A stretch of 64,000 bases of DNA from a bacterium (GCA_023133295.1 JAGLWT010000133.1:5054-69053); one strand, 5' to 3'; numbered from the stretch's first letter, positions 19,600 through 36,250 are shown. Translations and numbers: made by a program. Notes: generated from the sequence alone by a model not told the origin.

Positions 19600-20792
19600 T
19601 ATTCAATTAGTCAAGCCTGTGATTGATGCCATAACATATTGGACTTTTGCGTCCGATCCATAAAGTTCTCCATATAATACTCCATCGGAGACATTTTTGC
19701 AAGGCCTGAATGTGGTTTCTCTGTATTGTACCATATGAGATATTCCATCAAGCCCACATTGAATTCCTCAACGTCCTCAAGCTCATCCAGATGAGGATAA
19801 ATATACTGACTGCTGATCGTTTTGTTATAGCTTTCGATATATGCGTTCATCTTAGGTCTTCTCGGGTAGTTGTAATAGTGTATCATTTCTGTATCGCTGA
19901 TATATTTTGCGAAGTACTTCATGAACTCACTGCCGTTATCCGTTTGTATTCTTTTGATCTCAAAGGGAAAAGCTCTTTGGAGTTTGATAAGAAAGTCTTT
20001 TGCCTGTGCGGAACTTTTGCTTCTGTATGCGAAGGCGAAAGCGATTCGTGTTTTAAGGTCAACAGCGGTAATGACATATCTTTTCAACCCGAAAACAAAG
20101 CGTTCCACCGTATCCATCTGAACAAGATCTCCGGGCTTCTCAGGCTGATATTTTCCTCTTCTGAGCTTCTTTTTCTTTTTTGATAGCCTTTTATTCACTT
20201 TCATCGTTTTTGCGTTATATGTGAGTTTTGTATGATGATCAGCAAGACGGCCTGATTCTTTCAGATCCCTGATCAACCTGGCTATCGTGGAAGTCGACAG
20301 CAGCTTTGATCCGTTTTCTCCACAATACTTGTCCAGTCCTTTTTTAACGGCATCCTGGCAAACTCCGGGGTGGGCACGGCGATATTCAAGAATGAATTGC
20401 ATGACTTCAGGCGGGCATTCTCTTTTTCTTCTGTTTTTCGGCGCACGGGAACCCGGAGCAAGGGCGATCAGCCTGCCGCTGGAATCTTCTAATTTCTTTT
20501 TCCATTGATAGAATGTGGACCTGGAAATATGGAAGGCATCCAGAGTAGCATCAAGACCATGACGGGAACGAAAGTTCAGTATCTCCAGACGGCGGTCTAT
20601 TTCTGCTTTTTCCGAATGACTTACATACTCGTGATAGTCTGATTGATACCATAACCTATTGGACTTTTGCTTCCGATCCATAGAGTTCTCCATATAATAC
20701 TCCATCAGAGACATTTTTACTCGCCCCGAAGGGAGTTTCTCCGTATTGCACCGTATGAGACATTCTGTCAAGTCGATATAGAATTTTCCCAA
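19600..20792 (-). mobile_element. IS481-family insertion sequence (DDE transposase), preceded by a duplicated copy of its own 3' end
   Basis: The ORF 19611-20792 encodes an N-terminal HTH (LDAFHISRSTFYQWKKK) and an rve DDE integrase core (RIQTDNGSEFMKYF ... YIESYNKTI ... LIWYNTEKPHSGL). A ~135-nt segment at 19612-19745 (the C-terminus) is repeated at ~85% identity at 20636-20772, in frame at the 5' end. Confidence 0.75.
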
Positions 20793-21324: not shown

Positions 21325-22905
21325 CTATGTTACCCACTTTAAATTGATATTCCAATCACCTTCATTATAATTTAAATGTTTATTTCCACTTGGATAAATG
21401 CAGATACTAGGCCAATTCGCACATATTTTGAATCTTGGGGAAGTATTAAATGGAAATTTTTGATTTCTTTCTTCAAGATCAGAATTCCGCACTTTCTCAA
21501 TCTTGATACCGCAGAAGTCCCCACTAATCAAATTTCTAAACAAGACTCCCTCTACTTCAAGCCAGTAAATATAGCCCCCTCCTCGTATATTCATACATAA
21601 TGGTAATGAAAACTTTCTAAATTCTTCTCCAATGTTTTTATCAGAAATCTTGTCTAAGACAAATCCCCAACCGTTGAATAAAGAAATATTTTTATTTAAT
21701 TGGCTAAGAATGCGTAATGACTGTAAATCCTCCTCACACGAATCCTTAAGTTCCCATAATGATGGATTCAAGCATTCAAAATGTTTAAGATCTTTTAAAT
21801 ATTTTACTAACCACCCATACGCCTGCAAATTGAATGAATCTGTGGGTAATGTGTACTTCTCAACTCCAAATTGAATTTTTGATTCTCCTATGCAGTTTTC
21901 TAAAAAAGCACACAATTTAGGATATTTCAATATTGGAGTGTCTGCTTTTTCATCTATTTGACTTCTTGTGGTATGAACATATTCACCATCATGTAACTCA
22001 CGATTTGATATTACTAATGCTAGTCCAGATTGATGGTAATATCCAAAATGTGTTTTAGTCCTTCTATACATAAAATCACATCCTACTTCTTTCTCGCCAT
22101 TATTAGAAGTTAATTTTACAATTTTTCCTGTTTCAAAACTCGGCGCAGTTATTAACACTTTTGTTGGGAGATATTCAAATGCAGTCAATAGGTCATCTTT
22201 GAGTGGTAATTTCTGTAACCTACGTGATATTAAAGCGGGCTTCCCAAAAGCAGCTTTCATTATAACTTCTTCAACTTTGGGGAGGTGAGTATTATATTGA
22301 TCTTCCCAATTAGCCAGTTGAATAATTGAATATGTTTGATCTGGATTTTGGATTATTTGTAATCTTGATTCAGGAATAGCATATTGCAAATAGTATTTTC
22401 GAATATTCATTTTTATATTATCCAAATATTCAGGTTCTTTCATTCTAGATATCTCATTTTTAATTATATTTATGTCGCTAATACAATTTTTAAAGCTTAT
22501 CCTTTTAGTTTCTCTATCGCTATTAATAAAATTTATAATTTCTTTAATAAAACCATCAGTTTGAAATCTAAAAGCTACACAGTAATCTTTTTTTGGGTGT
22601 TTATAAAGTAAAACCAATATGAAAGGAAAATCACAAGTTAAAAATAGTTTTGCATCAGCCTTATTAATTTCAGCATAAGGATTTTTTTTATTCAAAGTTG
22701 AACGAACAAAAAAGGCAACGAATTTCGGAGGAATTTTTTTTATTCCTGGTGAAATTTCTTTTCCGATTATTTGACATATAAAATCTATCCCAAAATCATT
22801 AGTTAATTTTTCTGCTAAAAGATTTAATTCACTAGATGCAAAATACCGAATATAATGTTCAGCATCAATCCCTAATTTTTGACTTGCAGTAATTTTCTTT
22901 TCCAT
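21325..22905 (-). CDS. DUF4365-like (restriction-endonuclease-fold) N-terminal domain protein with a ~400-aa C-terminal region of unknown function; candidate defence protein
   Basis: Start chosen at MEKKITASQ (22905), which has a perfect Shine-Dalgarno AAGGAGG 9 nt upstream. The N-terminal ~130 aa carry the DUF4365 pattern NDFGIDFICQII ... KFVAFFVRSTLNKKNPY ... KLFLTCDFPFILVLLYK (compare D-Y-G-I-D ... v.vQ.KS in DUF4365). AT-rich. Confidence 0.5.
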   Translation of the reverse strand: MEKKITASQKLGIDAEHYIRYFASSELNLLAEKLTNDFGIDFICQIIGKEISPGIKKIPPKFVAFFVRSTLNKKNPYAEINKADAKLFLTCDFPFILVLLYKHPKKDYCVAFRFQTDGFIKEIINFINSDRETKRISFKNCISDINIIKNEISRMKEPEYLDNIKMNIRKYYLQYAIPESRLQIIQNPDQTYSIIQLANWEDQYNTHLPKVEEVIMKAAFGKPALISRRLQKLPLKDDLLTAFEYLPTKVLITAPSFETGKIVKLTSNNGEKEVGCDFMYRRTKTHFGYYHQSGLALVISNRELHDGEYVHTTRSQIDEKADTPILKYPKLCAFLENCIGESKIQFGVEKYTLPTDSFNLQAYGWLVKYLKDLKHFECLNPSLWELKDSCEEDLQSLRILSQLNKNISLFNGWGFVLDKISDKNIGEEFRKFSLPLCMNIRGGGYIYWLEVEGVLFRNLISGDFCGIKIEKVRNSDLEERNQKFPFNTSPRFKICANWPSICIYPSGNKHLNYNEGDWNINLKWVT

Positions 22906-22974
22906 GATATTATTCCTCCTTTTAGTAGATTCGTCGCGATTGCTTTTTATACCCATAAGCACCTCCTTAAGTTA

Positions 22975-23334
22975 TTATTTGTTGTTTATGAATGATAATA
23001 AATTATCCAGCATCAGCCTTGCTTCCTCTATATCAACTGAGGTAACTTTTCTCAGGAAATTTATTGCCTTCAGGCATTCGAGGATCGCTTTCTCTTTGTC
23101 TTCCGCGGTCAGGATCTTTTCAAGACACTTGATCGCATTGGATATATGGTGACTTTCCTTTTTATCAACATCAAGGTCATTCAGCATTTCAATAATATCC
23201 GAGTTCAAGGTTTCAGGATCATATGATACCGACTCAGTGAACTCAAAAGGTTCTTCTTGTTCATAAATCTGCTCCTCAATATCTTCACTGTCGCTAACTG
23301 TAGAATCAGTCTCCTTTCTCATCGTTGCTTTCAC
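22975..23334 (-). CDS. Small acidic hypothetical protein (119 aa); its 5' end duplicates an internal segment of the upstream RHS gene
   Basis: Begins MKATMRKETDSTVSDSEDIEEQ... The first ~20 codons and the ~30 nt upstream (23300-23365) match RHS gene 25773-25830 (YNEDNRIVKATMRKET) before diverging. The remainder is highly acidic. Confidence 0.45.
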   Translation of the reverse strand: MKATMRKETDSTVSDSEDIEEQIYEQEEPFEFTESVSYDPETLNSDIIEMLNDLDVDKKESHHISNAIKCLEKILTAEDKEKAILECLKAINFLRKVTSVDIEEARLMLDNLLSFINNK

Positions 23335-23424
23335 TATCCCGTTATCTTCATTATACCTAAATAATCATATTCGTAATTACTCTCAATACCGTCCTCATCG
23401 ATCATTTTTACTCTATTCCCAGGA

Positions 23425-24690
23425 CTATCTATGTTTGTCGTAAAATTCTTCTAATTTATATATGCGACACTTGTCAGTTCCGAAGAGAATAACTTGTTCG
23501 TCGGTTGTCATCACCCGCTCAACCTTATAATCAAAATCAAAAACCTTTTCCTCGCCATCTTCGAGGCGGTAAGTATAAATTTTATTCTCTAAGATCAGGA
23601 AGATCCTATCTTTGTAGATAAAGTCCGCCTCGTCGCGAAAAGATACCGGCGGTATTTCTTTCTGCCATAAAAGCCTACCATTTTTCAAATTGAAAACTTC
23701 ATAGCATTGCTTGGTGATCTTGTTATAATGTGCAGTAGCAACTCCGGTCCATTCTTCATCCGCTTTAAATCTTCTTTGAATTATCTTATTTCCAATAATA
23801 TCTGTTGTTGCAATTCCGTCCTTGTTCTTGCTCGGATATAAGTCCAGCTTCTGTTTTCTGTCGAATAGGAGCTTCCGCTTTTTCAGATCATAGACTGAAA
23901 AATGGGCAATGGGCACTCCGTCTTTCTTCTTATCAGGAGATTGAATCACATGTACCAAGTAGTGTGAAATTACATCAATAATTCCCTCTCTGTGATTAGA
24001 GTAGCCAATTTTCTTTAAATACCTTTTTAACTTAGGATTTGCAAAGTTCCGGATTTCCCAATTTTCCATATCAATCATTGTGGTTTGAAAATCATTTCGG
24101 AATTGATACAACCATATTATTTCCTCATTTTCTACACCAAGCCGCCAATAAGCAACTAATTTCTGGAAAAGTATATTAAAATCAACATCGGTAATAATTA
24201 ATTTTGAATATAGATGAGAAAAAATAATTTTATCTAAATGTTTCTGATAACCACCGTAATAGCCGTTTAAGAGTTTTGAAATATGAGAAGTATTGTCCAA
24301 TTCAAATTTCTTTGTCTCTTCATTAAAGGTATAAATTTCTAAATTCGTTTGTCTTTCTATTCTCCCTTCTTTAGGTGGTATATACAAGATCCTATTAGAG
24401 TCTGCAAAATTAAAGTTACTGGTTTTCTTCCCCTTACTTCCCTTAAAGTCCATGAGGATATTTTGAGGCATGGATAACCTTATTCTTTCAGGAAGAAGAA
24501 TCCAGTTCTTGGATCCTTCAAAGTTGATTTTTACGAAAGCGGCTTGACTCTGATTCTGTGAAGTTATGGATCCTCTTGGCTGAACCAATTTATACTCACT
24601 ATAGGTAATTTCGTCATATGAGTATATGTTACATGTAATTAAAAAGATAATAACAAACAAAGGTATTCTCTTATTCATCTCTTTCCTCAT
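23425..24690 (-). CDS. Secreted hypothetical protein (~420 aa); candidate immunity or partner protein of the RHS toxin
   Basis: Signal peptide MNKRIPLFVIIFLITCNIYS. The ORF as drawn (to 24708) overlaps the RHS stop at 24671, suggesting translational coupling. No recognisable catalytic motif. Confidence 0.5.
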   Translation of the reverse strand: MRKEMNKRIPLFVIIFLITCNIYSYDEITYSEYKLVQPRGSITSQNQSQAAFVKINFEGSKNWILLPERIRLSMPQNILMDFKGSKGKKTSNFNFADSNRILYIPPKEGRIERQTNLEIYTFNEETKKFELDNTSHISKLLNGYYGGYQKHLDKIIFSHLYSKLIITDVDFNILFQKLVAYWRLGVENEEIIWLYQFRNDFQTTMIDMENWEIRNFANPKLKRYLKKIGYSNHREGIIDVISHYLVHVIQSPDKKKDGVPIAHFSVYDLKKRKLLFDRKQKLDLYPSKNKDGIATTDIIGNKIIQRRFKADEEWTGVATAHYNKITKQCYEVFNLKNGRLLWQKEIPPVSFRDEADFIYKDRIFLILENKIYTYRLEDGEEKVFDFDYKVERVMTTDEQVILFGTDKCRIYKLEEFYDKHR

Positions 24691-27600
24691 AGAATTCATC
24701 GCTATCAATTATAACAGGATTCTGTGGATCGTCAAGTTGAATATTTACCAATCCCTCTATTTCCTTAACGTATTTTTTATAGTGGTGAGTATTTTCACTC
24801 TCATTGGCTCTTGCTTCAGCTTCTAAACCTTCCATATTATCGAGATAATACCTACCAAAAATATTTCGCATCTCTTTCGTAATCTCAGCTCGCTTTTCTT
24901 CATCTGACAAATCATCACGAGCCTGTATATCTTGAATTATCCTGAAAATCTGATTCTCATACTCTTCCAAATACTTAATAAACTGAATTACATGCGTTAA
25001 TTCATGTGAAGCTGTTGATTTCATTTCCTTTTGAAGAGTAAATATATAAAAGTCAAAAACGATTTCCCCTTCAGTATTAACTTGTGCTGTGAAATCAGTT
25101 TGCCCAAGCATCTTCGAATTGGAATCAAATATCTCCCCGATGGAACTTTCTCCGGTTAAAGCTAACTCAACTGTGTTATCGGAAAGATAAATATCTGCAT
25201 AATCCCTGTATAAAGAATATACTAGATATTCTCGCAATCCATCAAGATCAATGTATCTCAAAGGATTGTTCAATACATATATCCACCTGTTCAGACTCTG
25301 CGGGTTTTTCAAATTTAGGCTTGCCCTGTCCTTGCTCATCCACCTCCCGATCCTCTGGTCCAGATATCTCGCATTGGCATAATGGAGGTTAGTTTCCTCA
25401 TCATACTCATGTCCTGTGTACCCGTCCTTGTTCTTGTACTTCTCTTTCGCCTTGATGATATTCCCGAACGGGCCGTACTTATACGTATTCTCGATGCTTC
25501 CCATGGTGTCCGTTACCACTACAGGAGAACCTAAGACATCATAGTGGTAGTAGTGAGTGCCGTTTTTGTCCTTCTTCATGATCTTCTTGTTTCCAAAGTA
25601 ATAATTCACTTCACGATCTCCCGCCTCCAATTCGGCAAGAACTTTACCATTCATTCCCCGGAAATAGAAACCTTCCGTTTTTTCCCCATTGATGAGTTGC
25701 TTTAATTTATACACTCTAAGACCTCTGAAATCATATTGATAGTTTAGCTCAAGCGTTGCTGCCTTTTCAACTCCAGTCTCCTTTCTCATCGTTGCCTTCA
25801 CAATCCGGTTATCTTCATTATACACGAAATCAACGGAGTTTTGCAAGGTATCATTACCCAAAGTCTCCTTTCTTATTATGTTGCTGAAGTCATCATATGT
25901 ATAATTATGGCGCTTTTTAACATTGTCAACCCATGACAAGAGTCTGTTGGAAGTGTGTGCAATATTGTATGAATGTGTGTGAAAAGGACTCTGATACGAT
26001 AGGCGATTTCCGGTAGAATCATAGTTGTACTCCGTATTGAAAGGCGTTTTGTCATCATTGAACCAGGAATACATGGGACCGGTAACATTGTTGAGTCTCC
26101 CGAGTCGGTCGTATCCGTATTCCGTTTCGATATTATCTTCATCGATAAGTTTAATTCTGTTACCGTTTTTATCGTACTCATATGAATTTGTGTATATAAT
26201 ATTATTGTTACCTAAATTCATAATATCAATTTTTAATATTTCATTTAGTGGAGAATAGGCGTATTCTGTTGTCTCTGAAATTCCCGTAGGATACTTCGTT
26301 ACTGTACAACTTGAAAGCCTGCCGAAAGTATCGAAATGATTCTCAACACTAAAAAGCGGAATTCTAAGCCCCCCTAAAGATTCAGAGAAGCCGGATTTCA
26401 ATTTCCCTGAAAACTCTTCATAGGCGAAACCACTCTTTTGATCCAGGATGCCGTCATTTTCAAAATCGTACCAGAGATTGTTTAGCCGGTTTCGATTATT
26501 ATCATATCCATATGTGAATGACATCATATTTCCATTTAGGTCTATGGTCTTCTTGGTTATCCTGTCCAGACCGTCATATTCGTAGGTGTAAGTATTTCCG
26601 TTTAGATCATCAGTTTCCTTTAATACATTCCCCATTAAATCATAGTTTATTGTTTTTATATTTTGTGTTATTTGTGAAATGCTACTCTCGATTTTGCCCA
26701 GACGACCGAGTGTATCATAACTATAGTTTTTTGCTACCTGGGCAGAATTTTGATATCCTAATACATTGCCCGCAAGATTATTTTCATATTCTTCCCAACT
26801 CCCATCAGATTCAATTTTATTCACTAGCTGCGATAGGTAGTTATATTGAAATTGTGACTGATTACCCCGGCTATCAGTTACCAGAGTAAGGTTTCCAAGT
26901 GCATCGTAGTCATACGAAGTTTCATAAATCGCAGCATCATTGTACTCTTTGACCATAATCAGTCCATCTTCAACATCATAGAGATATTCCATATTCGGAT
27001 CTCCTGATTTATCAGCTTTGGGGCTCCAAATTTTCTCACTTCTGAAAACTCCATTTTCATTGTTAAAGTAGAGATGCTCTGATTTTGAAATCCGAATATC
27101 ACCGTCCTTTGATAATCTGGTTTCAATAACCCTGTCAATTTGATCATATTTGAATTCAGTTGAAATTCCTGAAGGCGAGATCTTGCGGATCAAATTATCA
27201 AAATCGTTGTATTCGTATCTTGTCTCAAAGAATTCCGAGGGATCTAAGGCTGTATTACCATTCTTATCGAAGAATTGCCACTCCTTCTCAATCCTAAAAA
27301 AGCTGTCAAAGTGGTATTTCGCGTTTGCCACTACTGCTCCGTCAAGGTATTCCGTGGAGGCTGTAATTGTTCTAAGTGTATCGTCATAACCATATAAGCT
27401 CTGTGGAAGATCTTGCTTGCCTACCTTGGTTAATCTTCCATAAATATCATATTCGTATGCAGTATTTCTTCCCATGGGATCAATATAGGTTTCTAAAAAC
27501 AATTCATCATTGTAATCGGCAAAAGCCATTAGAGTATAGGCGCCATCGATTTCTCCATCCACATATTTGTTCGAGTCTACTTTTACTCCGGTCAGAAGGG

Positions 27601-29821
27601 AGTTCCCGAAAGAGTATCCACTCAGAGTATCCCATGAGAAATCAACCCGCGGCCAATAGTGATAATCATATGCCGCCGAAGAATTGGCTTCTGTATAACC
27701 GTAATTAAGGAATACCCTACGCCTTTCACTCCCATTTATGTATTGATCTATCATCAAAGGTTTACCGTACCAATCCACAGCGACTACTTCTGACAGCAAT
27801 GTCCATGAGTTGTCCTCTGTATTGAATAAGTGCTCCCTTACCGGAACTCCGGATGGATCAAATTCTTTTTTAAAATGGCTGACCAGGGAAGCACTCTGGT
27901 AAAGTTTTTTCTCTGATCGTGCAATTATATTCGTAAAAAAGCTATAAGGCAGATCTTCTACAACCCTGATGTCTTGGTAGTAATTATATTCACGTATCTT
28001 CCCAAGTGGGAGATACTCTTTACTTAAGTATCCAAGAGTATTATATTCGTACGAAAATTCCACAGGAACATCATCCATAGTCTTTGTGATCTTGACGGGC
28101 CTGTAAATTTCATCTCTATTTGAATATACGCCAGATTCGTTAAGGAAAGGAGATATAATGTTAAGTTTCTCGTATTCATAGTCAGTCTTATATCCATTTG
28201 GTAGTCGATCTCGTATCTTTAATACAAGATTATTCCATTTCCAATCAGACGGGACAAGGTAAATGTATTCCCCTCCATTTTCTTGGACATCCAAGTAATT
28301 CAGATATATCCAATGATCAATATTGCTGTGTATCAAATACCGGGATTGATAAATACGCTGATCTACAATGGCTCCATCCACTATATCATTAACAATCTTC
28401 TCAACCATGTGTAATCTCCAGTCAGGTTCATTCGAATCCTGCTGTTGATATATGTATGATATGGTTGGAGGGAAATTGTCAGCTGAAACATTATTTTCAC
28501 CGATCCTTTTAATTGATTTTAGAGATCTAAACTTAAAGTCATTGACTCTCGTTATCCAACCAGAATATTGCATGGGGTTCCAGTTGGAATTATACTCTTC
28601 AAATTCAAACCGCAATTTCTCCCCACTTGTGGAGATATAGTCCCAGTCATTTGGATCTAATCTAAATCCACAAATTTGTTCACCATACTTATAAATGAAT
28701 TCGGGATTTGAAAGAAAAGATTTTGTATATGAATTTAAAATACTAAAGCTCACAGAGCCCGTATTCGCCCCGGATAAATAATTACTCTCATAGGCAGAAT
28801 AATCCATCAATGAAGATTCAAATGACTCGCCGACAAAGAATGAAATTATGTCTGCAATGGAATCATAACTGATTAATCTATATGTCTTCCCCGATACTTC
28901 AAGAGTACTGCCACTTACATTTACCGAGTATAACGGCAAATAACTATCCCCTGCACCAGCCTCCTTTGAGTATACAGTGAATGATTCATCTCCGGGTTCA
29001 TCTTCCGAATACTTCATCATCTTTCCATTCGAAAAGTAGAATTCAGGTTTTGTCTCATTATCGGGATCATGAGGAGATGATTTACTTAAGATATTGTATG
29101 GAGACTCCTGATTAGATGTAAGGCTTAGATACTTCAGATCGTTGTCTGGAGAGTCAATGGTTTGATTATAATAATCTCTTACTATTCTTTTACAAATGGC
29201 CCAACTGCCGACATCATTTACATAACCGGATACTTCGTGGATATCAACATCCTCCTTTATATACTCACACCTTCGTGTATAATATTCATGATGAGAATGA
29301 GGATTTGCGAAATTTGCTTCATATACTCCATTTTTTTCTAATTTGAAAATCTTGACGGCTACTCCATCAATACTGAGAATCCAAGCGTGTTCATATGAGC
29401 ATTGATAATCAATTGATCCACGATACGTCATCTTGGGTGGAGCCTCGAAAGAATCGCTTTCCAGCGGCCAGTTGTTATTAATATTCTTGACTAGCTTCAA
29501 TTTAACATCCGCTGTACTTCCATCCTTCAAAGGAAATGTCTTTAGGGTACGAGAAAGAATAACATTCCCTGAAAAATCATCCACAGAGCATGAAAAATCA
29601 ACGGTGCTGTAAGTGCTTTTATCAAATGATACGGTATTGAAATAAGATGCAATATCAAAGATCCCACTATCCTCTTCATCTCCGGCGGACATTGTACGCA
29701 TTATTGTATTTGAAGCTTCATCTTTATTCAGTTCAGAAGAAAGTCTAGAATTCGTTTCAGAGAATGTCCTCATCGAAAAAAGAATACATGCTATTAAAAA
29801 GAAGAATTTGACTGATTTCAT
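24671..29821 (-). CDS. RHS/YD-repeat polymorphic toxin (1716 aa) with Sec signal peptide and a C-terminal HExxH metallopeptidase-like toxin domain
   Basis: Signal peptide MKSVKFFFLIACILFSMRTFS. Many YD repeats (YEYDIYGRLTKV, YDYDALGNLTLV, YTYEYDGLDRITK, YGYDRLGRLNNV, YDVLGSPVVV). RHS core end GHEYDEETNLHYANARYLDQRIGRWMSKD ... NRWIYVLNNPLRYIDLDGL (the DPxGL-type boundary). A 187-aa tip follows, containing HELTHV. Confidence 0.85.
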   Translation of the reverse strand: MKSVKFFFLIACILFSMRTFSETNSRLSSELNKDEASNTIMRTMSAGDEEDSGIFDIASYFNTVSFDKSTYSTVDFSCSVDDFSGNVILSRTLKTFPLKDGSTADVKLKLVKNINNNWPLESDSFEAPPKMTYRGSIDYQCSYEHAWILSIDGVAVKIFKLEKNGVYEANFANPHSHHEYYTRRCEYIKEDVDIHEVSGYVNDVGSWAICKRIVRDYYNQTIDSPDNDLKYLSLTSNQESPYNILSKSSPHDPDNETKPEFYFSNGKMMKYSEDEPGDESFTVYSKEAGAGDSYLPLYSVNVSGSTLEVSGKTYRLISYDSIADIISFFVGESFESSLMDYSAYESNYLSGANTGSVSFSILNSYTKSFLSNPEFIYKYGEQICGFRLDPNDWDYISTSGEKLRFEFEEYNSNWNPMQYSGWITRVNDFKFRSLKSIKRIGENNVSADNFPPTISYIYQQQDSNEPDWRLHMVEKIVNDIVDGAIVDQRIYQSRYLIHSNIDHWIYLNYLDVQENGGEYIYLVPSDWKWNNLVLKIRDRLPNGYKTDYEYEKLNIISPFLNESGVYSNRDEIYRPVKITKTMDDVPVEFSYEYNTLGYLSKEYLPLGKIREYNYYQDIRVVEDLPYSFFTNIIARSEKKLYQSASLVSHFKKEFDPSGVPVREHLFNTEDNSWTLLSEVVAVDWYGKPLMIDQYINGSERRRVFLNYGYTEANSSAAYDYHYWPRVDFSWDTLSGYSFGNSLLTGVKVDSNKYVDGEIDGAYTLMAFADYNDELFLETYIDPMGRNTAYEYDIYGRLTKVGKQDLPQSLYGYDDTLRTITASTEYLDGAVVANAKYHFDSFFRIEKEWQFFDKNGNTALDPSEFFETRYEYNDFDNLIRKISPSGISTEFKYDQIDRVIETRLSKDGDIRISKSEHLYFNNENGVFRSEKIWSPKADKSGDPNMEYLYDVEDGLIMVKEYNDAAIYETSYDYDALGNLTLVTDSRGNQSQFQYNYLSQLVNKIESDGSWEEYENNLAGNVLGYQNSAQVAKNYSYDTLGRLGKIESSISQITQNIKTINYDLMGNVLKETDDLNGNTYTYEYDGLDRITKKTIDLNGNMMSFTYGYDNNRNRLNNLWYDFENDGILDQKSGFAYEEFSGKLKSGFSESLGGLRIPLFSVENHFDTFGRLSSCTVTKYPTGISETTEYAYSPLNEILKIDIMNLGNNNIIYTNSYEYDKNGNRIKLIDEDNIETEYGYDRLGRLNNVTGPMYSWFNDDKTPFNTEYNYDSTGNRLSYQSPFHTHSYNIAHTSNRLLSWVDNVKKRHNYTYDDFSNIIRKETLGNDTLQNSVDFVYNEDNRIVKATMRKETGVEKAATLELNYQYDFRGLRVYKLKQLINGEKTEGFYFRGMNGKVLAELEAGDREVNYYFGNKKIMKKDKNGTHYYHYDVLGSPVVVTDTMGSIENTYKYGPFGNIIKAKEKYKNKDGYTGHEYDEETNLHYANARYLDQRIGRWMSKDRASLNLKNPQSLNRWIYVLNNPLRYIDLDGLREYLVYSLYRDYADIYLSDNTVELALTGESSIGEIFDSNSKMLGQTDFTAQVNTEGEIVFDFYIFTLQKEMKSTASHELTHVIQFIKYLEEYENQIFRIIQDIQARDDLSDEEKRAEITKEMRNIFGRYYLDNMEGLEAEARANESENTHHYKKYVKEIEGLVNIQLDDPQNPVIIDSDEFYEERDE
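24674..25234 (-). other. Variable C-terminal toxin tip of the RHS protein (HExxH zinc-metallopeptidase-like), downstream of the DPxGL-type core boundary
   Basis: Residues after ...YIDLDGL: REYLVYSLYRDYADIYL ... STASHELTHVIQFIKYLEEYENQ ... The HExxH motif is followed by a Glu-rich helix. Confidence 0.55.
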
Positions 29822-30411
29822 TCTGCAACCCCTTCCAAGAGGAATTCAATCCGGTTCATGTTGAAGCTCGCTGTCCTTATAAACCGATATTCCGGATAAT
29901 TTTCCACTATCTCTTGATAGATTGCGTGCGCTGCTTTTAGATTACCGATATTTTCATAGGATTTAGCTTTATTGTGTTTGACTTCGGCAATATATTTGCT
30001 GCCGGGATATGCTGCTTCAAAGGCTTGATACTCTGAAATTGCTTCTGAATATCTAAGTGCAAAGAAGTAGCAATCGGCTACCCATTTCGCTGCTGTATCA
30101 GCGGTGGCTAAGATATTACAATTCGCCGCCTGTCTAAATGTATTAATTGCCTTCTCGATGGGATATTGCCTGAATTGTACTTTTAAGGCATTTTCCTTGT
30201 CCCAAAGATAGTAAAGGGCAATTCCTTTCTCTAGAAGAATCTCTGACATTGAATCCCCTGAAGATGAAATAAGGAGCTCGCACATGGAGACCGCCTCTTC
30301 AAATTTCCCTTTTGAGATGAGTTCTTTAACATCTGCAAGGCTCGTGTCAGCTGATACAATGCCGCAGAATAAAACAAAGATACAAATAATATATGTAAAT
30401 CGTTTTTTCAT
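29818..30411 (-). CDS. TPR-repeat exported protein/lipoprotein, translationally coupled to the RHS gene
   Basis: 197 aa. Signal peptide MKKRFTYIICIFVLFCGIVSA. TPR-like helical repeats (EAVSMCELLI, AINTFRQAANCN, AISEYQAFEAAYPGSKYIAE, AHAIYQEIVENYPEY). ATGA overlaps at both ends (30408-30411 and 29818-29821). Confidence 0.6.
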   Translation of the reverse strand: MKKRFTYIICIFVLFCGIVSADTSLADVKELISKGKFEEAVSMCELLISSSGDSMSEILLEKGIALYYLWDKENALKVQFRQYPIEKAINTFRQAANCNILATADTAAKWVADCYFFALRYSEAISEYQAFEAAYPGSKYIAEVKHNKAKSYENIGNLKAAHAIYQEIVENYPEYRFIRTASFNMNRIEFLLEGVAE

Positions 30412-33400
30412 TTTGTCACCTCCTTGTACATGGATTCATAATAAAGAAGAAGTCCATCAAGAAGCCTTCTGCTCCTATCGGTATCAATATCTTCGATTGC
30501 GACAAGGTTGTTGATGGTTTTTACAATATCCAGTATTGCCTTGTCAAGCTCTTCAATGTTCACAAAAGAGTCATCTAAGCCCTCAAATGTTTTTATTGCT
30601 TTTCTGATCCGGTTTGAATATTCAGTCTCGATTGAGATTTCGTATAATATCTCGGAAATAGCGGCTTTTATTTCTGAAATGTCCATTGCCATATAGATTG
30701 TCCTTTCAATCTCTTCCGTGTCAAACCAGATAACTGTGGCTTTGTAGGATGTTCTAGTGATAAAATTAAGCTCTCCCGAATAATCAGGCAGTCTTATTAA
30801 ATACTTCACGGTAACTTCCTTTTTTCCCTCTGGGAATTCAAAAGTGATAGAACCGTCTTCCACCACCCCTCCGTCATACACCTTAATAATTTCGACATTT
30901 TCTGGTAATATCTCAGTGATCCTAATAGGCACGGTAATATCCGCGATAACTTTGGTTTCAAGGGCGATTACCATCCCCGGAAGGTGTTCCTCTGGAATTC
31001 CGGGGGTTATCGCCCTGATATTGTCTGAAACGATCTCGGAAAGGTTGACATTTACTGCATTATACAATAGATCAAAACCATAGTATGCTGTCTTTCCCCA
31101 TCCATAGGGATTCAGTGTAATCACCGGTGAAGCAGGATTATTCGAAACAGATATAGTTCCAACAGAGACTAAATTAGAAGAAATGCCAAGCAGTTCAAGT
31201 CTTTGAACCCAACCCTCGATTGGGATGATTCCCGCGCTGCTTATACTCGTATCAGTTATGTCAATGAAATAATCATTTTCTGGATATTCCCCTATGGATT
31301 TCAAATTGAACATCCCAGGAGAACCCCCTTCAGAAATCATATGGATATATCCCGAAGATATCAGCCCAAAGCCACTGTAAACATGCTCCCGCATTTCTTC
31401 TGCGGTATGTCCGGGAAGATTATCATCTTTCTCATTGATCCAATAGACATTAAACCGGCCTGTTCTCATTTCATCAACAAAGTCGTTTATATTGTCAACT
31501 ATCGCATGGTCCGCAAGATTATTAAGCAGCATAAAATTATCAAGGTCCTGAGCCCCCTCACCATTGAGAATAAGTACCCTTTCAAAAGCAGTTCCATTAA
31601 CCGAAGTTTCAACTGCGGGGGCTAGGATTACCTCTTTGATATATACTTCGCTCTCATTGTCAACATTGTCTGTCGTCTTATACGAAATGATATACCTACC
31701 CGGTGCACTGAAAGGAAGCGTAAATGCATCTAAATAGTTCATCCAACCAGTATCATTCTGATCTGATACGCTTTCGATCCTGTATTGATAGTATTTCACT
31801 CCACTTTGACTATCGCTTCCCGAAAAAGTGAAAAAAGTTCCAAGATATACCAGAGTATTATTCTCGATTTGCCTAAAGGGAGAGTATGCCAAACTCACAT
31901 GTGGAGCTGTTTGATCTACAATGAACATTTGAGTTTCAGATATTTCCCTATTACATGCAGAATCGATACTTAAAAATGATAGAGTTATATCACTCTGGTC
32001 AAACTCTGATCCAGAAATAGCAGAAGTGTATTCGAGTGATTCAGAATTGTTAATGGAGTACTCGATTTTGTTCACACCAGATTGATAGAGGCCGCTATCG
32101 AAAGCACTTATAGAGATATTGGAATCCTCTGATATATATGTTAACCCATTATTTATATACTGGCTTCCTTCAATGTCAATATTAGAAATCGGTGCTACGG
32201 TATCGATCATAAATTGAGAATAATAGAACTCGCTTTGAAGTCCTTCTACATCAGTCCCCTGTAATTTAAATGCGTATAACCCATCGGGTAGTGTTTCGCC
32301 GATGTTTGAGCTTGCATCCCATATATGTGAAGATATGCCATCAACATTTGAATAGAATTGTGTCTTAAATACTTCTTCGCCGGAGTCACTTATCACGGCA
32401 AGGTCAATCAATGAAAATTCTGAAACGGAAAAAGTGATTTCAATAAAATCAAGGCAGTTATTGGAATCAGGACTGAGATAATAAGAACTTATACTTAAAT
32501 CAGCAATCTCGGGTTGAGTATAATCGCCAAAGTATCCTGAAAGAACATAGTATCCTTCAAGCGATTGTATTTCTACTGTTAATACATTGCTCACCGTGTC
32601 TCTATGGACCCTGGTTTCGTCCGGCTGGGCAACATGCCACATATTTGAGTCGGTATTGTATGCCCATACCTGCAGCTTACTTTCATCTAGCCCCTGAACC
32701 TTCTCATCAGAATAGGTAAAGGCAATTTCAATAAAATCGGTGAAATACTCTTGACCTGAAAGAAGTCTAATATCGTACACATTTGATAAAATCGGTTCGA
32801 TGTCATCTTGATTGGTCCCTTCTGATGGAATACTCTGCTGGGGAACAGAACTTATCATCAAAGTGTCAAATGTTGAAAGAATATCATTCTCGTTAACAGT
32901 GGCTATAACATTGCTTTCAATATTTTCGACATTACCAGGAACATTTCCTGCGATATTCTGACATTCGGAATATTCGGTTAGTGAGATTATGTTTAAATCA
33001 GCTCTGTTTTCAGAAATATATTGCGAGATGATTATTTTGTTTTCCGAATATGAATAAAATGGGAATGACGGAATGCCATTAGAGTCGGAAACTGAAAGAA
33101 TATTATTGGCGAAAAGGTCGTCCTCCCCACCCATTGAATCTACTCTCCCCAAAGAGATATTCATGTAATCGGGGGTTCCAGGTAATAATTTGGGTTGGGT
33201 ATTTCCAAAGGGATCTTCTCTCAAAGAAAATGCAAATCTACAATCAGTACCCTCAATGAAATTCCCACCGGAATAATAAATATACCTGCTATTATTATCC
33301 CAATCCATAAGCATCACAGAGTCGTAGTTGGAATTTGGGAACCTAGTTAACTCAATAGTTTGAGCATATTCCCCATAAGGGTCTAAATAAGCCACTTTTA

Positions 33401-35765
33401 CTCCAAGGGAAAAAGAATCAGCATCCAAAAAAGCTATTGCACTTGAATCATGTGAAATAACCGGTTGCCAACAAGTATTAATGCATTCTATCGTTGAATA
33501 CTCATCTATATAATACTGGTTTTGTGACCCATCAGGCATTATCAATATTTGAATTCTGTTACTAGGTTCAGCTATCGAGTCTCTAGCAGTTCCATGAAAG
33601 GCTAATAATGTACCGTCATCACTCCAGTCAATTCCATATATATATCCGAATATTTCAAATTGCCAAATAGTACTAGCGCTATTGACATCGTAGCATTTAA
33701 TGACGGTTTTATTTTCATCATTGCGGTAAATGTATGCCAAGGTATCTGAATTTCCCGCCCAAACGAAATCATCCCCCCATACTATATCGGGAAGAATTGA
33801 AATATTAGAGTTTTCTGTATCTACAATATGAATGTTGAAGCTCCTTAAAAATGCTACATATTTCCCTGACTTGGATATTTTATTAAACTTTGTAGGGCTG
33901 GGGTTCCACGAAGAATAAGGAGGTAATACAGAAGGTCTGGGGATACTGGAGACGAGTTGATAATAATTCGTACCATCGGTATTTAATCGATAAATACCAG
34001 AGTTTTCACTTAAATCATACGGACAAGTATTTCCCGGAATTTGAGCTACACTACATTTACATCCTCCTGAATATTCAAAATAATACAGCTGCGAACCCTT
34101 AATGAATGGCTGAAATGCGTAGGAATTTGATTCGAATTCCACGCGCTCAATACCTGAAATCGCAACTTTAGTTCCGGTTTCAATTTTAAATCTACCCGAC
34201 AAAGACTTTGAAGCAATTGAATAAATGTCTACAACATCAATATGGTAAAAGTATTCGCCATCCGGATAAATATTTCCATATTGATCACGCCCATCCCAAC
34301 TGATAACAACCTCATCTGAAGAAACAACTTCAGAGAATACAATTGTCCCATCTATATTTTTGATCTTAAAAATCCATGGGGATATCAGAGTTAAGTTCCC
34401 AACGCATGCGTCAAAATTAATCATTTCATTACAATTATCATCATTTGGAGAAAGAACATCACTTGAGACTACAATATTGACATCAATTGTGTTAATCTCA
34501 ATTTCTTTCACTTGACTGGCCAACATATTCCCTTGAAGATCCTCATATATAATTTCAATCAGATATTCACCTTCTGGAATAGTTTCTGTGGTAATAGTAC
34601 CTTCCAGCAAATAATCATTAAATGGTTTCGCGGAAAAACTTGAATAATATGTCTCGATAACAATTCCATTCAGATCCTTTAAGTGTATTTGTAACCTCGC
34701 CTCACTCTTTGAATAAAAAGAAGTGGAAAAAGTAATCTCGGCATATTTATGGGAATAATAATTTCTATTGAGCTCGAATTTAATTATTCTGAATGAATCA
34801 GATGGAACATGGTGAAATTCCCCTGCAATAGACCTCTCATTGTTGGAAATTTCGTAAATTTTTGAGTTATTATTAGTGTATATTGGTGTAGTTCCCAAGT
34901 GACTTGTTGAAAGAAATGGAGATGAAAATACATCGTCCAAACTTGACCAAATACTCTTATCAAGACCCATTTGCCAAATAGCGGAAGAAACACTGCTAAC
35001 ATCAGTAAAAGTAGGCCCGTTATATGCGATCAATTCAAATTGCCCCTGATTATTAACAAAAATCTCTGTTTGAAAATTCTCAGTAATAACTGAAATATCC
35101 TTATTTCCATCGCCATTGTAATCAAATACACCTGTTATTTCCTTTATACTACTGTTTAAATCCTGATCAAGATCCGAATTACAATTGAAACCAGTGGATG
35201 AGCTGCTGTATATGGTCAGGTTCCCTGTTTGGGAAAGAAATAAGAGCCAATAACTTGTATCGCCAGAAAAAAGACCAATGGTGGATTCCACACTTGGATT
35301 TAAAATAGGAATATCAATTTCCTGCACTATGCAAGGGTTAAGAATATCTTCATATACCTGAAACTTAGATCCCGACAAAAATCCAAATTCCAACCTTTGA
35401 TTATTGTTATAGTCGTCAAATAACTGTATATCCGAATCTACTGATTGAACGCCTGCCAACAACATTTGGAATATGAGGTCAAAATCATCGTCAAGAACAT
35501 TGTAATAATACTTGCCCTCGCAATTTGATAAAAAAATGATCTCAAATTCGTCATTTTCTTCTACTATTTCTAAATTTGATATGATTTGTTCTCCGTAACG
35601 AGTCAAATATGTGCCTAATAAGTACATATCTTTAAATCCAATAACGCTTCCCTGGCCTTCTTCCACACAGAAAACATAGTCCTGATATTGAACGGGAGCC
35701 CACTTAATATGCGCATAACTTGTTAATGCAATAATACACATCACCATTATAAAGGCCTTTTTCAT
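30408..35765 (-). CDS. Giant exported surface protein (~1785 aa) with FlgD-Ig-like domains, a TolB-like beta-propeller region and a C-terminal ~400-aa region of unknown fold; no T9SS CTD
   Basis: Start taken at MKKAFIMVMCIIALTSYA, with Shine-Dalgarno AAGGAGA 9 nt upstream. FlgD-Ig-like segments (LSPNDDNCNEMINFD ... ISWDGRDQYGNIYPDGEYFYHIDV; LSPDSNNCLDFIEITF ... LPDGLYAFKLQGTD). TolB-like repeats (KSGKYVAFLRSFNIHIVD, WSDDGTLLAFHGTARD). The C-terminus ends ...LLLYYESMYKEVTK with no sorting signal. Confidence 0.7.
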   Translation of the reverse strand: MKKAFIMVMCIIALTSYAHIKWAPVQYQDYVFCVEEGQGSVIGFKDMYLLGTYLTRYGEQIISNLEIVEENDEFEIIFLSNCEGKYYYNVLDDDFDLIFQMLLAGVQSVDSDIQLFDDYNNNQRLEFGFLSGSKFQVYEDILNPCIVQEIDIPILNPSVESTIGLFSGDTSYWLLFLSQTGNLTIYSSSSTGFNCNSDLDQDLNSSIKEITGVFDYNGDGNKDISVITENFQTEIFVNNQGQFELIAYNGPTFTDVSSVSSAIWQMGLDKSIWSSLDDVFSSPFLSTSHLGTTPIYTNNNSKIYEISNNERSIAGEFHHVPSDSFRIIKFELNRNYYSHKYAEITFSTSFYSKSEARLQIHLKDLNGIVIETYYSSFSAKPFNDYLLEGTITTETIPEGEYLIEIIYEDLQGNMLASQVKEIEINTIDVNIVVSSDVLSPNDDNCNEMINFDACVGNLTLISPWIFKIKNIDGTIVFSEVVSSDEVVISWDGRDQYGNIYPDGEYFYHIDVVDIYSIASKSLSGRFKIETGTKVAISGIERVEFESNSYAFQPFIKGSQLYYFEYSGGCKCSVAQIPGNTCPYDLSENSGIYRLNTDGTNYYQLVSSIPRPSVLPPYSSWNPSPTKFNKISKSGKYVAFLRSFNIHIVDTENSNISILPDIVWGDDFVWAGNSDTLAYIYRNDENKTVIKCYDVNSASTIWQFEIFGYIYGIDWSDDGTLLAFHGTARDSIAEPSNRIQILIMPDGSQNQYYIDEYSTIECINTCWQPVISHDSSAIAFLDADSFSLGVKVAYLDPYGEYAQTIELTRFPNSNYDSVMLMDWDNNSRYIYYSGGNFIEGTDCRFAFSLREDPFGNTQPKLLPGTPDYMNISLGRVDSMGGEDDLFANNILSVSDSNGIPSFPFYSYSENKIIISQYISENRADLNIISLTEYSECQNIAGNVPGNVENIESNVIATVNENDILSTFDTLMISSVPQQSIPSEGTNQDDIEPILSNVYDIRLLSGQEYFTDFIEIAFTYSDEKVQGLDESKLQVWAYNTDSNMWHVAQPDETRVHRDTVSNVLTVEIQSLEGYYVLSGYFGDYTQPEIADLSISSYYLSPDSNNCLDFIEITFSVSEFSLIDLAVISDSGEEVFKTQFYSNVDGISSHIWDASSNIGETLPDGLYAFKLQGTDVEGLQSEFYYSQFMIDTVAPISNIDIEGSQYINNGLTYISEDSNISISAFDSGLYQSGVNKIEYSINNSESLEYTSAISGSEFDQSDITLSFLSIDSACNREISETQMFIVDQTAPHVSLAYSPFRQIENNTLVYLGTFFTFSGSDSQSGVKYYQYRIESVSDQNDTGWMNYLDAFTLPFSAPGRYIISYKTTDNVDNESEVYIKEVILAPAVETSVNGTAFERVLILNGEGAQDLDNFMLLNNLADHAIVDNINDFVDEMRTGRFNVYWINEKDDNLPGHTAEEMREHVYSGFGLISSGYIHMISEGGSPGMFNLKSIGEYPENDYFIDITDTSISSAGIIPIEGWVQRLELLGISSNLVSVGTISVSNNPASPVITLNPYGWGKTAYYGFDLLYNAVNVNLSEIVSDNIRAITPGIPEEHLPGMVIALETKVIADITVPIRITEILPENVEIIKVYDGGVVEDGSITFEFPEGKKEVTVKYLIRLPDYSGELNFITRTSYKATVIWFDTEEIERTIYMAMDISEIKAAISEILYEISIETEYSNRIRKAIKTFEGLDDSFVNIEELDKAILDIVKTINNLVAIEDIDTDRSRRLLDGLLLYYESMYKEVTK

Positions 35766-36250
35766 GAGCATATCTCCTTTCTTGTGATTATGATATAATC
35801 CCGAAATAGAATCATTTCATCCCCTTGCCAGCTATATCGGAAGTTTATCTTTTCTCTCAATAATCCCTATTGGACATGATGCAAAGCCTTGTTGCGACTA
35901 CACATTTTAAAATTAAAAAGCTATCACATAACGAAAGCGTTTCATGCAGGAGCAGCCTTGAAGGTTGAAATCATCAATTGCATTCTTCGGTTACCCTTCC
36001 TTTGTGAGGAATTCTCTAACTAATTGTAATAGAAATATGCCAAAATGTCAAGTATATGATTATACCTCTTAGCCCATGTGGCATGTCGCGGTGATGGGGA
36101 GAAAGAGGAGATACTACACATTCAAAAAATGCAGTACTGAGTACAAAGGTGAGGTTATAAAGCAACCGATAAGCTGTTATTTCGTACACCCTTTTAATAT
36201 AGTTCTCTTTTCTTTCATTTTTCGTAAATATTTGGTAAAATCTTTAGACA

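Follow-up and report, generated by a model that had tools for sequence, protein, structure and literature searches.

An orphan C-terminal tip with an HExxH motif on an RHS protein from a metagenome-assembled bacterial genome, a putative zinc-metallopeptidase toxin domain with a candidate exported immunity protein

RHS proteins that end in an HExxH-containing metallopeptidase tip have been catalogued since 2012, and the known types comprise Tox-MPTase1-5, HopH1/M91, ALF-MPTase and the PVC-metallopeptidase in C-terminal position (Zhang et al. 2012, PMC3482391). For the Rhs-M91 effector of Salmonella Dublin, antibacterial activity through the M91 domain has been reported (PMC13556075). PVC-metallopeptidase, now named DUF4157 or eCIS_core, has the signature HExxHxxQ-E and is sometimes found as a C-terminal toxin on RHS proteins, and for Tox-MPTase1-5 and HopH1 the tabulated catalogue lists no associated immunity family (PMC3482391). 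A further HExxH toxin, the C-terminal metallopeptidase of VgrG2b from Pseudomonas aeruginosa, acts in the periplasm and is paired with an exported immunity protein, PA0261 (Tpe/Tpi family; Wood et al. 2019, PMC6899460). In this study, we analysed a 64,000-nucleotide stretch of bacterial DNA (GCA_023133295.1, JAGLWT010000133.1:5054-69053; hereafter the window, with positions counted from its first letter), which contains an RHS gene on the minus strand whose last 187 codons (24674..25234) encode an orphan tip with a single HExxH. On balance, we favour the view that this tip is probably a zincin-type metallopeptidase belonging to a real polymorphic-toxin module, and we rate the more general part of this view, a toxin tip with a cognate partner, above the metallopeptidase part.

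The RHS/YD-repeat polymorphic toxin gene (24671..29821, minus strand) encodes 1716 residues and is identical to MCK4643916.1, which is labelled 'RHS repeat-associated core domain-containing protein [bacterium]' in the database and comes from a metagenome-assembled genome of sample SAMN18200500. The protein is matched by RHS_repeat (PF05593, E=1.7e-29, five stretches) in Pfam and by YD_repeat (TIGR01643, E=2.5e-26) in NCBIfam, and its precomputed domains include TEN_YD-shell (PF25023). Rhs_assc_core (TIGR03696, NCBIfam) is matched over its full length (1-76 of 76) by aa 1449-1529 with E=1.6e-18. This core domain (25235..25477, minus strand) terminates in NNPLRYIDLDGL (aa 1518-1529, nt 25235-25270), the local form of the PxxxxDPxGL autoprotease motif, in which the canonical DPxGL reads DLDGL (P to L). 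From what is known of the family, an autoproteolytic cut is predicted between L1529 and R1530, and the tip comprises everything behind it (aa 1530-1716). A preliminary description of the window had already placed a 187-aa tip of non-YD character, with an HExxH, behind the core boundary; its coordinates, its boundary and the peptide it quoted (STASHELTHVIQF) were all correct, and its reading of this segment as the variable C-terminal end of a polymorphic RHS toxin is supported by the end of the TIGR03696 match at aa 1529. Relatives of the whole RHS protein are 23-30% identical over at most 45% of its length. Since the closest of them align to the core (~25% identity) and none aligns to the tip, which shares nothing with them, the protein appears to follow the constant-core, variable-tip pattern. 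The tips of eleven RHS relatives were also inspected, and a C-terminal HExxH (HEYTH, with weak M91/M48 matches) was found only in one of them, P0012, whose tip is dissimilar to the 187-aa tip. In this RHS/SpvB/FG-GAP relative, the region around 1925-2126 reads GHEYTHAYHNY...SELEALKF and gives weak matches to both M91 and M48; its precomputed Pfam domains contain no metallopeptidase, and the region looks like a second zincin-like tip on a distant RHS relative.

Like the RHS zincin tips described so far, the tip studied here is small and of apparent alpha+beta type, follows a YD shell with a DPxGL-type core end, and has the HExxH as its sole strong feature (PMC3482391, PMC13556075). It also resembles them in being apparently exchangeable by recombination, and it is similar in size to the Wss1-like MPTase tips (PMC3482391). 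Unlike them, it is not a detectable member of Tox-MPTase1-5, HopH1 (M91) or ALF-MPTase, none of which was present in the hmmscan lists of the whole tip (E<=1) or of its sub-fragments (E<=10), and its carrier has what looks like a Sec-type signal peptide in place of the PAAR/type VI secretion system (T6SS) or TcB/TcA context. Neither Pfam nor NCBIfam gave a match to a PAAR, DUF4280 or TcB/SpvB trafficking domain in the 1716-aa protein, which starts instead with a signal-peptide-like N-terminus (MKSVKFFFLIACILFSMRTFS). A further difference from Tox-MPTase1-5 and HopH1 is the presence of a coupled downstream gene. The tip appears to lie outside all the catalogued families; if it is a peptidase, it would work as those do. 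The statement in the preliminary description that metallopeptidase tips are less common among RHS toxins is fair, yet they form a well-described class (PMC3482391, PMC13556075).

The composition of the tip is strongly biased, with 13.9% Glu, 8.6% Asp, a net charge of -24 and an isoelectric point (pI) of 4.37. Because of this net charge, a nucleic-acid-targeting activity seems disfavoured. An HNH/EndoVII 'xHH' nuclease reading of T-H-H at tip residues 149-151 was considered and rejected, as no family matched, T-H-H is followed by too few residues and by no other His, and the tip is strongly acidic. The single HExxH of the tip is HELTH (aa 1606-1610, tip residues 77-81, nt 24992-25006). It is enclosed in TASHELTHVI (24986..25015, minus strand), which conforms to what we take to be the neutral zinc-peptidase signature of PROSITE PS00142, used here in the form [GSTALIVN]-{PCHR}-{KND}-H-E-[LIVMFYW]-{DEHRKP}-H-{EKPC}-[LIVMFYWGSPQ]. 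When the next two residues are added, the longer signature HExxHxxQ is also obtained, which is fitted by HELTHVIQ. In composition-preserving shuffles of the tip, a bare HExxH arises in 0.9%, the extended pattern in 0.03% and HExxHxxQ in 0.044%. Furthermore, HELTH is the sole HExxH in 26,088 aa of translated window sequence (stop-to-stop open reading frames (ORFs) of >=100 aa in six frames). These results support the view that the surroundings of the HExxH in the tip resemble those of typical zincin active sites.

Sub-threshold matches in Pfam point in the same direction. The best of them is SprT-like (PF10263; E=0.005-0.01, 16-17.2 bits against a cutoff of 25.6), in which tip residues 43-89 (47 residues) align to positions 29-79 of the 108-position profile. 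It is followed by eCIS_core/DUF4157 (PF13699; E=0.03-0.13, 13-15 bits against a cutoff of 22), which covers 17 residues of the HExxH helix only, by Peptidase_M8 (E=0.05-0.085, 12.8 bits against a cutoff of 21) over tip residues 68-155, by DUF6055 (E=0.08) on the same HExxH helix, and by DUF6782, a 'putative metallopeptidase' (E=0.11). Every peptidase family among these weak matches (SprT-like, eCIS_core/DUF4157, M8 and DUF6782) is an HExxH zincin family, and no rival toxin family was found at E<=1 in the Pfam, NCBIfam and PHROG scans of the tip. The unrelated DUF4484 and Aconitase_C appeared at similar E-values. When HELTH was replaced by AALTA, all five weak matches (SprT-like, eCIS_core, M8, DUF6782 and DUF6055) were lost, and DUF4484 and Aconitase_C remained. 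None of four shuffles that kept HELTH yielded any of the five families, and among ten that kept TASHELTHVIQF, two gave a weak zincin match (DUF6055 and WLM) and none gave SprT-like. Since the AALTA mutant loses all five families and motif-keeping shuffles rarely match, the HExxH is necessary for the weak zincin matches, and the natural flanks contribute a little at most.

SprT-like/Wss1-type minimal zincins (PF10263) are thus the closest group by profile, at 16-17 bits, and the match spans the predicted hairpin and the HExxH helix, although it stays below the cutoff. In SprT-like proteins, a third His follows close after the motif (HExxHxxxxxH); this His is absent from the tip, which reads HELTHVIQFIKY. 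In both AlphaFold2 (AF2) runs, the HExxH starts a long helix (tip residues 75-91) that is followed by several helices. A beta-hairpin precedes it, with strands at tip residues 48-52 and 58-62 in the run trimmed to residues 28-165, and at 42-52 and 58-66 in the full-length run. The predicted hairpin FTAQVNTEGEIVFDF (25049..25093, minus strand, tip residues 48-62), modelled with low confidence, ends ~15 residues before the HExxH helix and may provide the substrate-binding edge strand. The predicted order of hairpin, HExxH helix and further helices is compatible with that expected for a minimal zincin, since the zincin fold combines a mixed beta-sheet that has an edge strand with an active-site helix and a ligand helix.

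Two candidates for the third metal ligand stand on an equal footing. One is a Glu (E135, E138 or E140) in MEGLEAEARA (24806..24835, minus strand, tip residues 134-143), which forms a separate helix in the trimmed AF2 run and is similar to the ExEA[DEN] helix seen in DUF4157 proteins. The other is the His pair H150/H151 in T-H-H (24782..24790, minus strand, tip residues 149-151). These are the only other histidines of the tip, 69-70 residues past H81, a spacing that we take to be like that of leishmanolysin (M8), a comparison prompted by the span of the weak M8 match.

Several results weigh against a metallopeptidase assignment. No Pfam, NCBIfam or PHROG model reached its curated cutoff on the tip, so that the profile search which the preliminary description had proposed as a check returned no peptidase family above cutoff. 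A phmmer search of 1.84 billion representative proteins returned the parent protein alone, a word-index search returned nothing, and PDB sequences and PHROGs gave nothing relevant. Because no homologues of the tip were found, conservation of the putative catalytic residues is not assessable, and for the same reason AF2 had no alignment to draw on. The predicted local distance difference test (pLDDT) score was accordingly low, at 46 when the whole tip was modelled and 55.5 when it was trimmed to residues 28-165, with low confidence also in the beta region, and Foldseek searches with both models found nothing meaningful and no zincin. The structure prediction check proposed earlier therefore has two sides: the HExxH does open a helix after a hairpin, and the models carry low pLDDT and retrieve no zincin. 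The same holds for the Glu-rich helix that had been proposed to supply the third ligand. A candidate helix could be located, and a position-specific scoring matrix of the ExEA[DEN] helix, built from 18 DUF4157 members, had its best site in the tip at DNMEGLEAEARANESENT (tip residues 132-149), which includes MEGLEAEARA; with p=0.26, this site is indistinguishable from the Glu-rich background. The outcome of the DUF4157 comparison and the size of the presumed partner protein, both given below, belong with these points. The metallopeptidase-toxin interpretation of the preliminary description is therefore backed by the extended signature, HExxHxxQ, the helix after the hairpin and the exclusively zincin nature of the weak peptidase matches, and it is weakened by the missing curated match, the low-confidence models and the third ligand.

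In view of these points, the alternative that survives best is that the tip is a toxin of some other, unrecognised fold or activity, such as a membrane-active protein or a non-proteolytic enzyme, and that the HExxH is a chance or non-catalytic element of a Glu-rich helix. It would account for the reduction of the zincin similarity to a motif of 8-12 residues, for a third ligand that is not identifiable (p=0.26 for the Glu helix) and for the absence of structural support from AF2 and Foldseek, and the Glu content of 14% raises the odds of HE pairs. We nevertheless regard it as unlikely, though by no means negligible: the extended signature is rare in shuffles (0.03%) and has no second occurrence in the long ORFs of the window, the predicted position of the HExxH, opening a long helix that follows a hairpin, corresponds to the canonical zincin layout, and no competing toxin family is seen at E<=1.

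A second alternative is that the tip is a divergent PVC-metallopeptidase/DUF4157 domain in the rarer C-terminal toxin position on an RHS protein, a position that has been noted for a Pedosphaera protein (PMC3482391). The tip shares with DUF4157/eCIS_core (PF13699) the HExxHxxQ signature, a predicted strand ~17 residues upstream, a candidate ExEA-type helix downstream and the C-terminal location after RHS repeats (PMC3482391, PMC8213781). With a DUF4157 consensus, we fetched 80 genomic loci that encode the domain and extracted 68 domains, from which a hidden Markov model (HMM) and an hhalign template were built. HELTHVIQ of the tip is close to HELTHVVQ, the consensus of the 68 members, and the spacing from the IVF strand to the HExxH equals that of DUF4157 within one residue, which is not significant against shuffles. 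With the HMM, the tip scored 13.1 bits, whereas shuffles that kept only HELTHVIQ scored 13.8±2.7 bits and 574 of 1000 reached or exceeded the tip. Similarly, hhalign reported 'probability 90%' for the tip, and motif-only shuffles did as well or better in 49 of 150 cases in local mode and in 99 of 150 in global mode. Because HELTHVIQ-only shuffles reproduce both the HMMER and the hhalign scores, the likeness of the tip to DUF4157 consists of the 8-residue motif, with nothing measurable beyond it, including over the three strands and helix A that precede the motif in the family, and the 13-bit and 90% matches were rejected as evidence for homology to DUF4157. The PF13699 match (E=0.03-0.13) spans 17 residues and, at 13-15 bits, also stays below the cutoff of 22; the downstream E-x-E-A helix is not significant and lies ~57 residues past the HExxH, compared with about 20-25 in DUF4157 proteins, and no extracellular contractile injection system (eCIS) genes were seen among the window ORFs scanned. 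Membership in DUF4157 is accordingly quite improbable. The -E of HExxHxxQ-E stands for a conserved Glu that the third helix of the domain carries. Within the DUF4157 set itself, an ExEA[DEN] helix was found within 80 residues after HExxHxxQ in just 18 of the 68 proteins, and in these it lies 17-25 residues past the motif. Many of the others presumably carry an EQEADRVA-like segment N-terminal to the domain, and the third-ligand helix may thus lie on either side of the motif across DUF4157 proteins.

The gene downstream of the RHS gene (23425..24678, minus strand; MCK4643915.1) encodes an orphan protein of 417 aa, a candidate immunity protein, and overlaps the RHS stop by 8 nt (ATGAATAA). The database start is the ATG at 24678, giving 417 aa beginning with MNKR, and the preliminary description had used 24690; both starts are possible. 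Its claim that the adjacent gene product carries a signal peptide agrees with the N-terminus MNKRIPLFVIIFLITC, which has a basic n-region and an 11-residue hydrophobic core with a mean Kyte-Doolittle value of 3.0, and which fits a signal peptide or a signal anchor. A lipobox-like LITC is also present, with T at -1, outside what we take to be the standard [GAS] set. The mature protein is basic (pI 8.99, net +8), in contrast to the acidic tip, and the opposite charges would fit a binding pair. Searches for homologues or a family returned the protein itself only, with none in PDB, Pfam, NCBIfam or PHROGs. The large size for an immunity protein and the lack of a recognisable family are the points referred to above. 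Its position makes the protein a candidate for an immunity role. A sigma-70-like consensus match, TTGACG-16-TGnTATAAT (24708..24735, minus strand; 11/12 positions plus an extended -10), lies within the last part of the tip-coding sequence, ~30 nt ahead of the 417-aa gene, and may serve as a separate promoter for this gene; across the region, such sites are no more numerous than expected by chance.

The pair formed by the tip and the 417-aa protein may be compared to VgrG2b and PA0261, in that an HExxH toxin acting in the periplasm would be bound and neutralised by an exported immunity protein, be it periplasmic, a lipoprotein or membrane-anchored (PMC6899460). In contrast to that system, in which the carrier is a VgrG spike of a T6SS, the carrier here would be a Sec-exported RHS protein, and the two systems show no detectable relationship in sequence. 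What points to a site of action for the tip outside the cytoplasm is how the downstream protein begins, with its signal-peptide-like N-terminus.

Directly established were the RHS architecture, the position of the core boundary, the orphan status of the tip, the motif with its context and the overlap between the genes. General knowledge of RHS toxins leads us to infer the following scheme, including its autocleavage, the metal binding and peptidase activity of the tip, the site at which the tip acts and the immunity. The 1716-aa RHS protein would be exported by Sec, and its YD-repeat shell would enclose its own C-terminal 187 residues. The core ends in a conserved aspartyl autoprotease motif, which would cut after L1529 and leave a free, encapsulated tip. 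This tip would be a small zincin-type zinc metallohydrolase, probably a peptidase, in which H77 and H81 of HELTH would bind zinc, E78 would activate water, and a Glu in MEGLEAEARA or H150/H151, on the helices further downstream, would serve as the third ligand. It would attack envelope or periplasmic proteins of a competitor cell, and the exported basic 417-aa protein would bind and neutralise the acidic tip outside the cytoplasm of the producer.

The surroundings of the tip point to an exchange of cassettes. In the RHS core, a 50-bp segment that encodes ...YNEDNRIVKATMRKET... (25774..25823, minus strand) is the upstream arm of a direct repeat and recurs, 94% identical and 2467 bp away, at 23307-23356, downstream of the 417-aa gene, so that the repeat brackets the 3' end of the core, the tip and the 417-aa gene. 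The downstream arm belongs to decayed rhs-core remnants (23307..23429, minus strand), in which DSPGNRVKMIDEDGIESNYEYDYLGIMKITG resembles aa 1217-1248 (56%) and FRYNEDNGIVKATMRKET resembles aa 1332-1349 (50 nt at 94%); the stretch between these two counterparts is deleted, with 23337-23429 placed next to the repeat arm. GC content at third codon positions (GC3) is 0.54 in the last ~196 codons of the core (25235-25822); the tip has a GC3 of 0.28 and the remainder of the RHS gene one of 0.35-0.37, and the step from 0.37 to 0.54 coincides with the upstream repeat (25774-25823). Because GC3 differs between the end of the core, the rest of the gene and the tip, the 3' end of the RHS gene looks like a mosaic of differing sources, and the repeat, the remnants and the GC3 steps together look like a recombination scar of cassette exchange. 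This pattern is typical of polymorphic-toxin loci and therefore suggests that the tip is exchangeable toxin cargo. The same scarring might mean that neither the tip nor the downstream gene still functions, both being decaying cargo with no selection on the motif, as both proteins are singletons and the locus holds rhs remnants, an insertion sequence (IS)-type integrase gene (19611-20792) and low-GC foreign genes. This is very improbable, because the two ORFs (1716 and 417 codons) are uninterrupted and the stop of the first is coupled to the start of the second, the autoprotease motif of the core has been kept, and the same sequence occurs in independent assemblies of the sample.

Beyond the remnants lie an acidic 119-aa ORF (22975..23334, minus strand, pI 4.4), which starts with the rhs remnant VKATMRKET, and a basic 545-aa orphan ORF (21325..22962, minus strand, pI 8.8, GC 0.305, GC3 0.22). 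Their charge pattern mirrors that of the tip and the 417-aa protein. Paralogy between the two pairs was considered and rejected, as no sequence similarity was found. The 119-aa and 545-aa ORFs may represent a displaced or chimeric orphan module. The IS-type transposase/integrase gene (19611..20792, minus strand) encodes an rve integrase core and a helix-turn-helix, and contains a 146-nt direct repeat (84% identical; 19620-19765 and 20640-20785).

The RHS gene and its partner appear to belong to an operon of four translationally coupled genes on the minus strand, encoding a 1787-aa protein, a tetratricopeptide repeat (TPR) protein, the RHS protein and the 417-aa protein. The first gene (30408..35771, minus strand) overlaps the next by 4 nt, has a promoter-like site at 36051-36023, and encodes the 1787-aa protein, with Ig-like (FlgD_ig/CHU_C) and weak FG-GAP matches only. 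The second (29818..30411, minus strand) has 4-nt overlaps with both neighbours and encodes a 197-aa YbgF/BamD-like TPR protein with a signal-peptide-like N-terminus; such N-termini are found on all four operon products. No PAAR, VgrG, T6SS, TcA/TcB or eCIS genes were seen among the window ORFs scanned, and the 1787-aa and TPR proteins may assist an RHS protein that works independently of a T6SS, as accessory factors or in its delivery.

The concept of a zincin-like RHS tip is established, and the novelty here lies in a single sequence, uncharacterised and unconserved, from a metagenome bin. It is mildly unusual that neither the tip nor its partner has any relative, that the exported partner is large, that the RHS protein is of Sec type with no sign of a T6SS, and that the two upstream genes are unexplained. 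If the metallopeptidase interpretation is true, a sequence-orphan zincin would join the RHS-carried metallopeptidase toxins together with a candidate exported immunity protein. Such a candidate would be of use, as most HExxH toxin families have no associated immunity family in the 2012 catalogue and their targets are poorly known. The operon, with its 1787-aa, TPR, signal-peptide RHS and exported partner genes, might indicate a form of RHS delivery that uses neither T6SS nor Tc components. In the boldest version, the tip would be the first of a new minimal zincin toxin family, its exported immunity protein would be unusually large (417 aa) and possibly a lipoprotein, and its carrier would be a T6SS-independent, Sec-exported RHS protein of an uncultured bacterium, with the co-transcribed 1787-aa and TPR proteins as a new delivery apparatus, a combination that we put forward as a long shot. 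Elsewhere in the window, a gene at 5823-11141 on the minus strand encodes a 1772-aa secreted protein with a clostripain (C11) peptidase, three proprotein-convertase P-domains and PD40 repeats.

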